Source: Polyangiales bacterium (lineage in GTDB: Bacteria; Myxococcota_A; Polyangia; Polyangiales; Ga0077539). Taken from it: DNA of 64,000 nucleotides. The stretch is from positions 96,001 through 160,000 of the forward strand of contig JBGARZ010000003.1 in the NCBI GenBank assembly GCA_044229975.1. Reading direction: 5' to 3'. Shown here piece after piece: positions 37,689 through 43,035 of this stretch. The notes under the pieces were generated by a model. That model searched no databases and was not told where the DNA came from. It was given only the letters and a program-made list of their open reading frames with translations. Made by a program: the position numbers and the translations under genes. Within the stretch, counting starts at the first letter, position 1, and the number at the start of each line of letters is the position of its first letter.

Positions 37689-38387
37689 ATGAAGACCCCT
37701 CCCCCGACCGAAGCCTCCGACGAGAGCCCCACCGTGACTCGCGTCCGCGAGCTCATCACCCCGATGCAGACCCGCACGCGCATCGTCGTCCTCCAGCACC
37801 CGCAGGAGCGCGACCGCGACCTCGGAACGGTCCCGCTGCTCCGCGCGATGCTCCCGCAGGTGGAGGTAGTCGTCGGGCTCTCGTGGCCCTCCCTCGCCCG
37901 GCTCCTCGATGACGCCGACGCGGACGCCCTCCGCTGGGCGGTGCTCTACCCGGGCTCGCTCCCGCGAGAGCTCCAACGCGACGAGCAATCGGCCCCGGTG
38001 CTGCGCCTCGATCGCAACGGCAACGCCCTCGGCCCGACGCCGCACCTCCAGGGGCTGCTCGTGCTCGACGGGTCGTGGTCGCAGGCCAAGACCCTCTGGT
38101 GGCGCAACCCCTGGTTCTTGAAGGTGCAGCGCCTGGTGCTCCACCCCAAGGAGCCGTCGATCTACGGAAAGCTCCGCAAGGAGCCGCGGCGCGAGGCCAT
38201 CTCCACGCTGGAGTCCGTGGCCGACGCCCTGGTGTTCAATGGAGAGCCCAAGGAGGTGCGGGAGACGCTCCGGAAGGTGTTCCGCACGATGATCCAGCGC
38301 ACCCGCGACGAGCGGAAGCAGGCGGGGCCCGCGGCGCCGGGCACCGACACCGTCGACACCGACCAAGACCCGCCGGAATCAGCCTGA
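37689..38387 (+). CDS. DTW-domain tRNA aminocarboxypropyltransferase (TapT-like)
   Basis: VLQHPQE, VLYP, VLDGSWSQAK, ISTLESV. Confidence 0.85.
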   Translation: MKTPPPTEASDESPTVTRVRELITPMQTRTRIVVLQHPQERDRDLGTVPLLRAMLPQVEVVVGLSWPSLARLLDDADADALRWAVLYPGSLPRELQRDEQSAPVLRLDRNGNALGPTPHLQGLLVLDGSWSQAKTLWWRNPWFLKVQRLVLHPKEPSIYGKLRKEPRREAISTLESVADALVFNGEPKEVRETLRKVFRTMIQRTRDERKQAGPAAPGTDTVDTDQDPPESA

Positions 38388-38503
38388 TCGTGAACACGAT
38401 CCGGGTCGGACCGTATATGGTCCCGGCCCGCATCGCCGGAGGGTCGGCGCCGGCGGCAGCTCCACTGCCCGTAATCCCCCACACGTCCATAGGAGAACCT
38501 CGC

Positions 38504-39541
38504 ATGAAGTCGGTCAGCCAGAGAATGTTCGTCGTGATGTCCGCGGTCTCGGTCCTCGGCATCGGCAGCGGCTGCGCGCGCACAGCCACCTTCGCCGTGA
38601 CGCGCCCCGCGATGCTCAACGCCGCCGCCGTCGGCAACACCATGTCCGTCGGTGGCGTGGCCGCCCCGTCGGGGATGCCCCAGGACATGCAGGCCGCCGC
38701 GGAGATCGTCAGCGACCTCACCGGGCGCGTCAGCCACTCGCTCAACCCCTCCATCCGCTTGATGGCGGCCGGCGGCGGCGTGGTCATCACCGGCGCGGTG
38801 CTCGCCAACCAGTACGTCGAAAACTTCGAGCAGAACCCCGGCACCTGCACCCGCAGCGTCCCGACCTACGTCAACGGGCGCCCGAGCTCGCGCGTCGAGT
38901 CGTACTCCTGCACCAACCTCCGCCGCGTGGGCACCGCCTCGGCGCGGCTCCAGTTCCAGGTGACGCACGGCCAGGACGGACAGGTGCTGTTCGACCGCAC
39001 CTACGATGACACCGCGACGACGGCCACCACCGGCGTGATCTCGCCGTACGAGCGCCGCGACCCGCCTCCCATCGACGGCGGCGGCATGCTCCACAACCTC
39101 CGCGCAAACCTCACCGAGCACTTCGCGCGCGTGATCCTGCCGTGGCAGGAGAACGTCACCGTGGTCTTCGAGGACTGCGATGGCGACGCGCGCTGCCGCC
39201 AGGGCTACGACCTCGTGCAGCACCAGAACCTCGCTGGGGCCGAGCCGCTCTTCACCGCCGTCATCGGCCAGTACCAGAACGCCACCCTCCCGGTTCCGCC
39301 CAACGAGGCAGAGAAGATCGGCGAGGCGTTCTACAACCGCGGGCTCGTGCGCTCGTACCTCGGGCAGTACGCCCGCGCGGTGGCCGACCTCACGCGCGCC
39401 ATCGCGCTGCGCCCCGAGGAGACCGACTGGCAGCAGGAACTCCAGTCCGCCCAGCGCATGTCGCAGGATCAGGAAGCCCTCCGTCAGCAGGGCGCCGTCG
39501 CCAACGAGACCCAGAACGTCCAGCAGGCAGGCACCCCGTGA
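38504..39541 (+). CDS. TPR-containing lipoprotein
   Basis: AGGAGA RBS; lipobox GSGC; AFYNRGLVRSYLGQYARAVADLTRAIALRP TPR. Confidence 0.8.
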   Translation: MKSVSQRMFVVMSAVSVLGIGSGCARTATFAVTRPAMLNAAAVGNTMSVGGVAAPSGMPQDMQAAAEIVSDLTGRVSHSLNPSIRLMAAGGGVVITGAVLANQYVENFEQNPGTCTRSVPTYVNGRPSSRVESYSCTNLRRVGTASARLQFQVTHGQDGQVLFDRTYDDTATTATTGVISPYERRDPPPIDGGGMLHNLRANLTEHFARVILPWQENVTVVFEDCDGDARCRQGYDLVQHQNLAGAEPLFTAVIGQYQNATLPVPPNEAEKIGEAFYNRGLVRSYLGQYARAVADLTRAIALRPEETDWQQELQSAQRMSQDQEALRQQGAVANETQNVQQAGTP

Positions 39542-40977
39542 GCTTGCGCCGCGTCGGTTCATGGTCCCTCGGGGCGGCGCTGTGCGTCGCCGGCGCGGGC
39601 TCGCTCTGGTCGTGCCGCAACATGAGCGGCGCGGCCCCCGTCGATCAGAGCGCCCTCGCGGCGCAGAACAGCGTGTTCTTCCAGGAGCAGCTCCGCCTCG
39701 CCCGCGAGGCCCTCGCGCGCCAGGAATGGGAGGCCGCCCGGCAGAACCTCGAAGGCGTCGTCGAGTCGCTCCCGGCGACCGATCCCAACGGTGCCGAAGC
39801 CCGCGCGGGCCTCGCCCAGATCGCCTTCGAGCTCGGCGACTACGCCCGCGCCGCTCAGGTCGCCGCGGAGGTCCCCAACAACTCCGCCGTCGCGGCCTCG
39901 GCCCTCGAGAGCCGCGGCCTCGCGCAGCTCTTCTCGTGCAACTTCGAGGCGGCCACGCAGACCTTCTACCAGCTCGCGGAGGTCGACAACCCGCGCGGCC
40001 GCGTGTGGCTGGGCGTGGCCTTCGCGTGGACGGGCGCCGACGCCAACGCCGAGCGCGAGCTCACCTCGGTGGTCTCGAGCGCCGGCAACACCGAGCACGC
40101 CCCCAACGCCCGCTTCTACCTCTCGCAGCTCGCCCTCTGGGGTCGCCGCGCGGGGCCCGCGCAGCGCTATCTGGGTGAGCTCCAGTCGTCGTCGCCGCAG
40201 TACCTCCCGACGCTCGACACCCGCGCGCAGAACTGGCTCACCCGCCGCGCGCACCTCATGCGGGCGTACTTCACCTTCGACACGCTGGCGCGCCTGCACC
40301 GCATGTCGTCCAACAACCAGGCCGTCGCCGACGACCAGCACGCGGGCCAGGCCCTCGCGCTCCTCCAGGCGTCCCCCGGTGCGTGTGGCGAGCAGGTGAC
40401 CCGCCTCGCCCAGGCGCGCTCCGCCGCGGCCGGCGACCGCGACGCCTTCGCGGCCGCCAACCGCGACAACGACGGCGACGGCGTGCCCGACGCGCGCGAC
40501 CGCTGCCCCAACGAGGCGGAGACCCGCAACGGCATCCAGGACGACGACGGCTGCCCCGAGGCCACCGCGGCCATCGAGGTGGTCGGCAACCAGATCCGCA
40601 TCCGCGACGGGTTCGCCATCAACTTCGACCCCGCCCGCGACTCGGTCATGGACTCGTCGCGCCCGGTGCTCGACGCCATCGCGGCGCTGCTGCGCAACCC
40701 GGCCTACAGCTGGATCCGCCGCATCCGCCTCGAAGGCCACACCGACGACGTCGGCGAGACCGCCGCCAACCTCGACCTCTCGCAGCGCCGCGTGCGCCGC
40801 GTGGGCGCCCTGCTCGTCGCCAACGGCGTGCCCACCGACCGGCTCACCTTCGAGTCGTATGGTGAGAGCCGCCCCATCGACCCGTCGGGCACCGAAGAAG
40901 CCCGCGCCCGCAACCGCCGCGTGGAGATGTTCATCATCGACCCGGCGACCTTCGGCGGCGTTCGCGCCACCAACTGA
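39538..40977 (+). CDS. TPR + thrombospondin type-3 repeat + OmpA-like peptidoglycan-binding lipoprotein
   Basis: GTGA overlap with upstream gene; DNDGDGVPDARDRCP...DDDGCPE; EGHTDDVG..NLDLSQRR..YGESRP..NRRVE. Confidence 0.88.
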   Translation: MSLRRVGSWSLGAALCVAGAGSLWSCRNMSGAAPVDQSALAAQNSVFFQEQLRLAREALARQEWEAARQNLEGVVESLPATDPNGAEARAGLAQIAFELGDYARAAQVAAEVPNNSAVAASALESRGLAQLFSCNFEAATQTFYQLAEVDNPRGRVWLGVAFAWTGADANAERELTSVVSSAGNTEHAPNARFYLSQLALWGRRAGPAQRYLGELQSSSPQYLPTLDTRAQNWLTRRAHLMRAYFTFDTLARLHRMSSNNQAVADDQHAGQALALLQASPGACGEQVTRLAQARSAAAGDRDAFAAANRDNDGDGVPDARDRCPNEAETRNGIQDDDGCPEATAAIEVVGNQIRIRDGFAINFDPARDSVMDSSRPVLDAIAALLRNPAYSWIRRIRLEGHTDDVGETAANLDLSQRRVRRVGALLVANGVPTDRLTFESYGESRPIDPSGTEEARARNRRVEMFIIDPATFGGVRATN

Positions 40978-41070
40978 CCCTCTCCCCTCTCCTCTCGTCC
41001 CCACGCATCAACGCTCGGCCCGTCCGCGGGCCGTGTGGCATCATCGGCGCCCCTCACGAGGAGCGTTGCG

Positions 41071-41805
41071 ATGATTGGTTCGCGGGTCATGGGTCTGTGG
41101 TCCAACGGAAGCTGGTATCCCGGCACGGTCAGCAAGAGCCGTGACCGCGGGGGCGAGCACGAGTTCTTCGTGCAGTTCGATGACGGCGACACCGCATGGC
41201 TGCGGCTCGACCAGCTCCAGCCGCAACCGGGAGCCCAGACGGCGGCTCGTGGGCACAACCCCTTCCCCGGCGCGCGGGTCATGGGGGACTGGACCGAGGA
41301 CAGCTGGTACCCGGGCTACGTCGCCGAGGCCAACGCCAACGAGAGCCTCTTCTTCGTGCAGTTCGACGACGGCGACACCAAGTGGCTGCCCGCCGTGAAG
41401 ATCCGCCCCAACGGCGACCGCCCCAACGCCGCCCCGGCGCCGCACCTCACCGCGGGCACCGTGGTGCAGGGCGATTGGAGCGGCGGCTCCTGGTATCCGG
41501 GCGTCGTCGCGCGGGTCAACGCCAACGCCACGATGTTCTTCATCCAGTTCGATGACGGCGACCAGAAGTGGCTGCCCGTCCATCTCCTGCGCTTCGGTCA
41601 CGTCGCCGCCGCCCCGCCGTCCTATCCGCAGCACGCGCCGCCCTCGTACCCGCAGTACGCGCCGCCCTCCTACCCCCAGGCGCCCGCGGCGCCCGTGGTG
41701 GAGAAGGTCATCGAGCGGCAGGTGCTCGTGGTGCGCTGCCCCTACTGCAAGAAGCTCACGCCCGCCGACCTCACGAGCTGCGAGCAGTGCGGCGCGAAGC
41801 AGTAG
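41071..41805 (+). CDS. Triple Tudor-like domain protein with PPSY repeats and C-terminal zinc ribbon
   Basis: Three repeats V.G.W....WYPG.V...FF[VI]QFDDGD..WL; (APPSYPQx)3; CPYC...CEQC; GAGGAG RBS. Confidence 0.85.
   Translation: MIGSRVMGLWSNGSWYPGTVSKSRDRGGEHEFFVQFDDGDTAWLRLDQLQPQPGAQTAARGHNPFPGARVMGDWTEDSWYPGYVAEANANESLFFVQFDDGDTKWLPAVKIRPNGDRPNAAPAPHLTAGTVVQGDWSGGSWYPGVVARVNANATMFFIQFDDGDQKWLPVHLLRFGHVAAAPPSYPQHAPPSYPQYAPPSYPQAPAAPVVEKVIERQVLVVRCPYCKKLTPADLTSCEQCGAKQ
41611..41682 (+). repeat. 3 x 24-bp in-frame tandem repeat encoding APPSYPQ(H/Y/A)
   Basis: Units at 41611-41634, 41635-41658 and 41659-41682. Confidence 0.9.
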
Positions 41806-43035
41806 TCAGCGCCGACCGCTCTTCCCCCCGCCCATGATCTGCGAGAGCGCCGCGAGGCCCGCCGTCAACGACGACAGGGTCTCGTCGAGGTGCGCCTTGC
41901 TCGCGCGGCCCTTGGCGGCCGCCCGCTTGGGCTTCGTCGGCTTCGCGACCTTCGGCACTTCGCGCGGCACTTCGACGCGAGGCGCCGGGGCCGCGACCAC
42001 CACGGGCTTCACCTCGCGCGCGACGCGGAGCGGGGCCACCTTGGTCGTCGCGCGGCTGCGCTCCAGCGCCGCCGTCGACGGCAACGCCGCGGGGGCCGCC
42101 GCCTTCTGCACGCCTTCGGGATAGACCCGCACGCCCGCCGGCGGTGTCGACACGTCCGTCCACCACGACGCGTCGGGCTGCGCGGCGTCCTCCGACTCCA
42201 CGGGAGGGAGGCCGAGGTCTTCGGCGTCGATGCCCCACGCGAGGCACGAGTGACGCTCCGCCTCGGACATCTCCGCGATGGGCTCGACCCGCGTGGCCCG
42301 ATGCGCGAAGCGACGAGGCTTCGCGGCACCCCGCGAGCGCCACGGACGATCACCGTGAACGTAGTCCTGCCCGAGCAGCCAGTGCCCCAGGAGGGCGCGC
42401 ATCCATTCGGAGGGGAGCACCAGTCGGCGCAGCGTCTGGGTGCCGCTCGCGCCCGGCGTCTGCGCCACCACGAGCAGGTCGAGCAGCTCGAACACCAGCT
42501 CGGTGTGATGCTCGGCGAGCAGCAGCATCGCCCGCGCGGCAGCGTCGCGGTGGGGACACGCCTGCTGGGACGGCGCCGGGCTCCAGACGGTGAGCGGCCC
42601 GCGCGGCGGCTCACGCGCGATGCACTCCTTGCACTGCTGGGCGCCCGCGCCGGGTGGCTTCAATCGACCACCGAAGCGGCTGCGCCACGTCGCGCGCAGG
42701 TCATCGATGACGGCCATGGGACCTGCGTCGAGGTCGAGCGGCCGGTCGCGCGTGACCCAGGTCGGGTGTTCGAAGAGCGAGTGTTGTGCGATGAGCACCC
42801 GCAGCCCTTCGGCGTACTCGCGGTCTTCGATCTGCGTGGCCCATTGGCGGTAATGCCAGCGGCGCAGGTCGAACTCGGCGGGCTCCTCGCCGCGCGGGGT
42901 GTGGATCAGGGTCGAGAGAAAGGTCCCGTGGCGGCGCACCTCGACGCGACCGGCGTCTCCGAGGTCGAGGGCGTACAGGTCACGCACCGGCACCGCGTAG
43001 GCAGGCTCGCGCGAGGTCTCCAGCTCAGGGATCAA
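41806..43035 (-). CDS. Hypothetical protein, probable divergent SWIM zinc-finger partner of SNF2 helicase
   Basis: Start overlaps the SNF2 stop (TTGA); CKEC-x22-CPH followed by ..AA....LLAE....LVFEL, resembling the SWIM CxC..CxH block; Lys/Ala-rich tail. Confidence 0.6.
   Translation of the reverse strand: MIPELETSREPAYAVPVRDLYALDLGDAGRVEVRRHGTFLSTLIHTPRGEEPAEFDLRRWHYRQWATQIEDREYAEGLRVLIAQHSLFEHPTWVTRDRPLDLDAGPMAVIDDLRATWRSRFGGRLKPPGAGAQQCKECIAREPPRGPLTVWSPAPSQQACPHRDAAARAMLLLAEHHTELVFELLDLLVVAQTPGASGTQTLRRLVLPSEWMRALLGHWLLGQDYVHGDRPWRSRGAAKPRRFAHRATRVEPIAEMSEAERHSCLAWGIDAEDLGLPPVESEDAAQPDASWWTDVSTPPAGVRVYPEGVQKAAAPAALPSTAALERSRATTKVAPLRVAREVKPVVVAAPAPRVEVPREVPKVAKPTKPKRAAAKGRASKAHLDETLSSLTAGLAALSQIMGGGKSGRR

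Follow-up and report, generated by a model that had tools for sequence, protein, structure and literature searches.

The triple-Tudor gene and its surroundings

The window, i.e., the whole stretch of 64,000 nucleotides from a Polyangiales bacterium that was analysed, carries a gene for a protein with three predicted Tudor barrels, a proline-rich linker and a zinc-ribbon-like tail, referred to here as the triple-Tudor protein (Table 1). Translation of the open reading frame gives exactly 244 amino acids and contains the motifs quoted in the initial annotation. The start methionine is common to the orthologues, and comparison with four close loci (L005-L008) indicates purifying selection on the barrels, with dN/dS values of 0.24-0.41. 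The triple-Tudor gene is a real gene. A scan at the gene found no promoter or terminator, and ESM Atlas yielded no usable match for the protein. The search of RNA runs returned one soil run with a share of 0.08; its contigs are those of a relative (less than 95% alike) and no transcription of the gene is shown by them.

Table 1. Features of the triple-Tudor gene, in positions of the window.
Feature	Position	Strand	Evidence
Gene encoding 244 aa, with three Tudor barrels followed by a Pro-rich linker and a C4 zinc-ribbon-like tail; lacks a signal peptide and a membrane segment	41071..41805	+	Translation, Pfam, model
Shine-Dalgarno-like GAGGAG, 8 nt 5' of the ATG	41059..41064	+	Sequence
Predicted Tudor barrel 1, aa 1-52, pocket W10, Y16, F36, D38	41071..41226	+	Pfam, model; 53BP1 3lgf Z 8.1, rmsd 0.8 over 49 residues
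Predicted Tudor barrel 2, aa 64-115, pocket W74, Y80, F98, D100; most conserved barrel	41260..41415	+	TDRD3 Z 9.3, PHF19 Z 8.9, tree
Predicted Tudor barrel 3, aa 126-177, pocket W136, Y142, F160, D162	41446..41601	+	MTF2 5xfr Z 9.6, rmsd 1.5 over 51 residues
Low-confidence Pro/Ala/Tyr linker, three PPSYPQ units; length and sequence vary among orthologues	41602..41700	+	pLDDT 44-59
Conserved tail: ERQVLVVR strand and C4 zinc-ribbon-like motif C223, C226, C237, C240	41701..41802	+	Conservation, model

Upstream and in the same orientation are two genes, one for a TPR and one for a TPR-OmpA protein. This pair (38075-40977, forward strand; the second product is of the TPR-TSP3-OmpA type) follows a DTW-domain gene, and the block is kept in L005-L009, with a divergent kinase gene between the triple-Tudor gene and the OmpA gene in L009. 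Downstream, a convergent ORF of 409 aa (41806-43035, reverse strand) has no Pfam match at an E-value of 1, is about 66% or more alike among the closest loci and overlaps the stop of an SNF2 gene. The latter, also convergent and two genes downstream of the triple-Tudor gene, is limited to the closest loci. Among the matches listed, conservation of the neighbourhood is confined to the closest loci, L004-L008, and is partial in L009; neighbours in L010-L013 are unrelated. In L009 and at L010 (7991-9337), a four-barrel orthologue is directly followed by a gene of the MATCAP family (tyrosine carboxypeptidase). No conserved methyltransferase neighbour was found for the triple-Tudor gene or for the SpoOM-Tudor paralogue described below, and no transport or amine-metabolism neighbours were present at the examined loci.

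Three Tudor barrels and a four-cysteine tail

The three tandem repeats of about 50 residues noticed earlier are well supported. Pairwise identities are 26/47, 24/46 and 28/46 (52-61%), and the repeat alignment scores of 138, 120 and 166 lie far above the respective maxima of 54, 45 and 41 obtained with 1000 shuffles each. Pfam Tudor_5 matched three stretches of the protein (E 6.5e-21, 74 bits vs a cut-off of 31), and the BAHCC1-like Tudor, Tudor_3, Tudor_2, Agenet and DUF4537 families also exceeded their cut-offs, so that each of the three names suggested for a Pfam check (Tudor, Agenet and DUF4537) was recovered. In the AlphaFold2 model, built from a 45-row alignment, the barrels have pLDDT values above 90, the four-cysteine tail is ordered and the linker is disordered (pTM 0.53). 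Each modeled barrel is five-stranded, about 50 residues long and has the 3-10 turn typical of Tudor domains. In a structural search of 48,161 solved chains, Tudor domains were the top matches with Z values of 8-9.6 (MTF2 9.6, TDRD3 9.3, PHF19 8.9, 53BP1 8.1), whereas KOW/NusG domains scored lower (7.2 and 6.8). At the level of the backbone, the model matches the Tudor domains of MTF2 and 53BP1, as proposed, and that of PHF19. The predicted fold is a Tudor fold and not the generic SH3/KOW barrel that had been named in the refuting case.

The top Foldseek match was the triple Tudor of SETDB1 (E 4e-11). Compared with the compact packing of triple Tudors (SETDB1/Spindlin), the model gives TM scores of 0.28-0.33 at a low inter-domain confidence. 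A pTM of 0.53 together with the TM score of 0.28 against SETDB1 suggests that the barrels may be loosely arranged. All three are net acidic, with ratios of K+R to D+E of 5/7, 4/8 and 3/4.

The Pro/Tyr repeat reported after the barrels is present, with PPSYPQ occurring three times, but it is not conserved in orthologues. In the zinc ribbon seen in CPYC..CEQC, C223, C226, C237 and C240 are invariant in 25 close relatives, although the Pfam match of the isolated tail is weak and below the cut-off (Zn_ribbon_3, E 4e-4). The four invariant cysteines and the modeled strands give two CxxC knuckles on hairpins, as in C4 zinc ribbons, with putative metal binding. All 16 matches in a search with the tail motif also carry Tudor families.

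The predicted binding pocket

A profile of 19 single barrels gave KDM4A as the best match (E 2.7e-12), followed by PHF20L1, BAHCC1, MTF2, SETDB1, PHF19, PHF1 and 53BP1. W10 and Y16 align on W967 and Y973 of KDM4A, and F36 and D38 on F932 and D934. In the available text of two reports on KDM4A, these four residues form the cage for trimethyl-lysine, which is preferred over monomethyl-lysine about 45-fold (PMC3176149, PMC5114558).

The initial annotation had described all four cage aromatics of the PHF1 type as conserved in each repeat. The equivalents of W41, Y47 and F65 of PHF1 are indeed kept, but the position of F71 is taken by A42, K104 and K166 in the three barrels (an ungapped PHF1 alignment puts F71 on K166). 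Across the clade of relatives that share the C-terminal zinc ribbon (the zinc-ribbon clade), this position is Lys in 46/90 barrels, Ala in 38/90 and aromatic in none of the 90, and a Trp occurs one residue further in 88 of the 90. The predicted pocket thus consists of W, Y and F plus Asp, as in KDM4A, and not of the four aromatics of PHF1. According to the accessible parts of a study on PHF1 (PMC7492083), mutations W41A, Y47A and F65A abolish binding and F71A weakens it about threefold; the same source states that efficient histone binding needs the complete cage and that MTF2, with Ser at the F71 site, binds weakly. Because the effect of F71A in PHF1 is only mild, the absent fourth aromatic appears to be the dispensable one.

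When barrels were scored for this aromatic-aromatic-aromatic-acid set, in groups that we assigned from a signal-peptide/TM heuristic, the pocket was intact in 89/89 scorable barrels of the zinc-ribbon clade (90 barrels found in 29 proteins), 118/124 barrels of secreted relatives, 772/859 barrels of long proteins and 128/248 barrels of a group of 325-420 aa without signal peptide. The full conservation in the clade supports the earlier suggestion of a conserved pocket of the methyl-ammonium type.

Distribution and cellular location

The homologue search found 150 proteins among 899 candidates, and the single-barrel profile matched 6214 clusters (E ≤0.001) in a set of 1.84 billion, a figure that pools prokaryotes and eukaryotes. 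Where a full-length relative is named, its genome was assembled from a metagenome, and the usual label is Myxococcales, Myxococcaceae, Polyangiales or Deltaproteobacteria. In the host family, 11 of 25 genomes carry a full-length orthologue, against none of 16 from the order's other families, some of these genomes being incomplete.

Consistent with the earlier remark that a signal peptide is lacking, barrel 1 already begins at residue 2. Of 161 retrieved proteins of at most 460 aa, 27 have a signal peptide, 10 a TM segment and 124 neither, by a hydrophobicity heuristic that missed at least two signal peptides and in a set that is biased to the query and may hold eukaryotic fragments. All 29 proteins with the C-terminal zinc ribbon belong to the group with neither, i.e., the same heuristic detected a signal peptide or TM segment in 0/29. 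The triple-Tudor protein is therefore likely to be cytoplasmic, as judged from its sequence and those of its relatives.

In a tree of 97 barrel rows, barrels cluster by position, with barrel 2 forming a group of 10 rows (support 100/97). This grouping suggests that each barrel has been kept under its own selection. The long many-repeat proteins separate from the others (15/16 rows, 97/89); one is named Nematostella and the others are presumably eukaryotic. With 52 columns the backbone of the tree is not resolved, and therefore we claim no origin or direction. Of 496 candidates for longer fusions, 7 were matches, none of them a close relative fused to an enzyme, which is weak evidence.

Several other architectures came to light. 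P0030, P0031, P0040, P0052, P0063, about 45 others and L014 form a large group of proteins that are built of five or six Tudor barrels, lack a signal peptide and have about half of their pockets intact; one member is named Gemmataceae and L014 is from Gemmatales. P0058, P0077, P0081, P0108 and L054 combine a zinc ribbon, two Tudors, a TM helix and two further Tudors, which would place barrels on both sides of the membrane. The long profile matches P0130-P0265 reach 35 barrels with mostly intact pockets and are apparently eukaryotic. Barrels are also found fused to a calcineurin-like phosphoesterase (P0245) and to a SAM domain (P0214).

Paralogues, a candidate ligand and possible writers

The host genome encodes six further bacterial chromo/Tudor-type proteins, including the caspase+chromo type known from a published survey (PMC5906684). 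Single barrels end many cytoplasmic low-complexity proteins, with zinc ribbon-linker-Tudor, SpoOM-Tudor, LemA-Tudor and kinase-Tudor arrangements. Two Ser/Thr-kinase-like proteins (G000:C32:646488-648563 and C34:323271-325349) end in a chromo/Tudor barrel, which follows a hydrophobic segment in one and not in the other. Another paralogue (G000:C38:298988-300145, L077; relatives L038 and L040-L045) has an N-terminal Tudor with a degenerate pocket and many FNPF repeats and is conserved in the family; its pocket Tyr is lost, yet the gene persists. We take the FNPF repeats to resemble eukaryotic NPF motifs.

The paralogue G000:C23:144343-145260 (L078, L080-L099) consists of a SpoOM-like domain, low-complexity Lys-Gly(-Gly) repeats and a C-terminal Tudor. 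Among 6517 filtered ORFs it alone reached at least 4 occurrences of [AGS]KG[GAM] per 100 aa (8; the next best had 2), a pattern chosen after this paralogue had been seen. The repeats are kept in 16 of 17 SpoOM-Tudor orthologues, collected from 20 loci, and the repeat unit varies by lineage. In the linkers of these proteins 126 of 158 lysines precede a Gly, compared with 46 on average and at most 65 after shuffling, the sequences being related and hence not independent. Three further tandem-Tudor proteins that lack a signal peptide (P0181, P0225 and P0230) have similar Lys-Gly linkers. No such enrichment was found in the linkers of the zinc-ribbon clade (3 observed vs 2.0 expected), of secreted relatives (4 vs 3.7) or of other short relatives (17 vs 14.8). 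The SpoOM-Tudor gene is present in 19/25 genomes of the family, including all 11 that carry the triple-Tudor gene, a co-occurrence that relatedness alone could produce. Prediction of a complex of the three barrels with unmethylated Lys-Gly repeats gave a score of 0.00, with no controls folded, and counts neither for nor against binding. The SpoOM-Tudor protein is a possible methyl-lysine substrate, and its Lys-Gly repeats are, speculatively, the best candidate ligand, to be taken as a lead and not as a result.

No dedicated writer of lysine methylation was found. PrmA is present (E 3.7e-52), and no other lysine methyltransferase was identified that might act as the writer. A search of the host genome (93% complete) did not find SET, nor does SET track the triple-Tudor gene, as it occurs in 1/11 carriers vs 6/14 other genomes of the family; SET was therefore rejected as a co-occurring writer. 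Histones of PF00808 were detected in 0/41 genomes, a model that divergent bacterial histones could escape, and DUF1931 was not found in the same 93% complete host genome.

Proposed function and alternatives

Taken together, the triple-Tudor protein is best explained as a cytoplasmic multivalent adaptor that would bind proteins other than histones through their methylated lysine (or arginine) side chains, a prediction that we consider moderately probable. We infer a multivalent reader because the same barrel ends varied low-complexity cytoplasmic proteins and because chromatin and nucleic acid are disfavoured as targets. In each barrel, cation-π contacts and the Asp would grip a methyl-ammonium group, as in KDM4A. 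The barrels may be arranged as beads on a string, with the flexible linker leading to the four-cysteine tail. Such an arrangement would let avidity favour targets with repeated lysines, and the putative zinc ribbon could bridge a bound target to a second partner. Several findings weigh against a methyl reader: no writer co-occurs with the gene, the PHF1 study asks for a complete cage, the clade's own linkers show no Lys-Gly enrichment, the search on myxobacterial lysine methylation found no relevant paper, and the pocket is equally conserved in secreted relatives (118/124), whose ligand cannot be a cytoplasmic protein, so that another cation may be bound. A more far-reaching version, in which the Lys-Gly-Gly repeats carry methyl marks and multivalent Tudor adaptors cross-link them in a histone-free intracellular write-and-read network, is conjectural and rather improbable; if true, it would be a bacterial parallel to the methylated RGG repeats and Tudor proteins of eukaryotes.

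Next after the methyl reader we rank a methyl-independent peptide adaptor, and then a small-amine binder. In the former case the barrels would recognize low-complexity peptides that contain unmodified Lys/Arg or are rich in Pro, in the manner of SH3 domains, with no methyl mark involved. The many low-complexity proteins that end in a single barrel, the persistence of the FNPF paralogue that has lost its pocket Tyr and the lack of a co-occurring writer agree with this, but the near-invariance of W, Y, F and D in the clade (89/89), the methyl-lysine readers found as closest solved relatives by sequence, and the strong preference of KDM4A for the trimethylated side chain argue for methyl recognition, and we regard the unmodified-peptide adaptor as unlikely, if the most serious competitor.

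An aromatic box with an acid is a general solution for binding quaternary amines. The barrels could accordingly recognize choline, betaine, free trimethyl-lysine or a methylated lipid head group and serve as a sensor or membrane tether. The pocket is kept on both sides of the membrane, including in the TM proteins P0058, P0077 and P0081. However, the gene has no transport or amine-metabolism neighbours and the protein no output domain besides the zinc ribbon, which makes an amine binder quite improbable.

Two further proposals are very improbable. Binding of nucleic acid, as by PSHCP or ProQ and assisted by the zinc ribbon, would fit the structural match to PSHCP (6nnb, Z 8.0), but in the available text on PSHCP, which binds tRNA, that protein is described as basic and lacking a cage (10.1101/542068), whereas the barrels of the triple-Tudor protein are caged and acidic. 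Comparably doubtful is binding of envelope peptides, the published model for the family (PMC5906684, as far as its text was available), by a protein exported without signal peptide and partnered with the products of the co-oriented TPR and TPR-OmpA genes that lie upstream; a signal peptide was detected in 0/29 clade members, all have the four-cysteine tail, a divergent kinase gene intervenes in L009 and the neighbours in L010-L013 are unrelated. Least probable of all is that the protein reads bacterial chromatin or modified histones and was perhaps acquired from a eukaryote. Although the best structural matches are chromatin readers and an SNF2 gene lies downstream in close relatives, that neighbour is confined to the closest loci, the presumably eukaryotic long many-repeat proteins group apart in the tree, and PF00808 histones (0/41 genomes), DUF1931 and SET (host genome) were not found, with the proviso that divergent histones could be missed.

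Comparison with known Tudor proteins

The methyl-reading function had initially been presented as one not known to be characterised in bacteria. This overstates its novelty. An in silico survey published in 2018 (Kaur, Iyer, Subramanian and Aravind; PMC5906684), in the parts available, describes bacterial chromo-like domains that are closest to Tudor, have aromatic cages, occur in 2-6 tandem copies in deltaproteobacteria and planctomycetes, and are predicted to bind a methyl-lysine-like ligand. Its tables list Minicystis CHROMOx3, Haliangium Band_7+CHROMO and one Myxococcales ZNR+TUDOR protein. Because these tables include the same FDDG-type barrels, the survey had already published this domain, its tandem layout and the idea of methyl binding. 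By motif comparison only, rows of the survey's alignment share the pattern W..YPG...[FY]DDG-D with the triple-Tudor protein, which likewise has caged bacterial barrels in tandem copies. The domains of the survey are consistently secreted, with peptidoglycan or matrix ligands proposed, whereas the zinc-ribbon clade has no signal peptide (0/29) and a conserved C-terminal zinc ribbon. When the available part of the survey's supplement was searched for zinc-ribbon, SpoOM and Gemmat entries, that single ZNR+TUDOR row was the only one found among the chromo proteins, and the remaining parts may list more cytoplasmic members. A literature search, with most subscription papers outside its scope, turned up neither a report of tandem Tudor proteins that stay inside the cell and end in a zinc ribbon nor a binding experiment on a caged bacterial Tudor; a search on methylated lysines in the proteomes of myxobacteria found no relevant paper. 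The zinc-ribbon clade is likely an intracellular variant of the described, mostly exported bacterial Tudor family.

Cytoplasmic Tudor folds are known from bacteria in PSHCP, PA2504, the C-terminal domain of UvrD and CarD. In the sources as far as available, these are single barrels, none being reported as a tandem caged protein; PSHCP lacks a cage and binds RNA, and the cage of PA2504 is modelled only. Among eukaryotic proteins, the double Tudor of KDM4A/JMJD2A (PF18104) has the same four pocket residues W, Y, F and D, but its barrels are interdigitated hybrids fused to a demethylase and read histones, whereas the triple-Tudor protein has three separate barrels in the model, no enzyme and no histone found. 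PHF1/MTF2/PHF19 and 53BP1 are the top structural matches and share the equivalents of W41, Y47 and F65, but PHF1 has an aromatic at F71 where the triple-Tudor protein has Ala or Lys. The position after DDG is Asp in 90/90 barrels of the zinc-ribbon clade; in 53BP1 it is presumably Tyr1523. Like SETDB1 and Spindlin, the triple-Tudor protein has three tandem barrels, but the arrangement in SETDB1 does not superpose (TM 0.28, rmsd about 12 Å) and the linkers of the triple-Tudor protein are variable.

Since the triple-Tudor protein is small and predicted to be soluble, and a candidate ligand can be named, the question of what bacterial caged Tudors bind becomes directly testable. If no methyl preference were observed, it would be an ordinary adaptor of the described family. 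Readers of methyl marks are treated as eukaryotic innovations in the accessible text of a preprint (10.1101/2021.11.30.470311), and the available parts of the 2018 survey regard the bacterial forerunners of such readers as secreted proteins that bind the cell wall and that moved inside the cell in eukaryotes alone (PMC5906684). A cytoplasmic clade with a fully conserved KDM4A-type pocket would imply that the move into the cell also occurred in bacteria.
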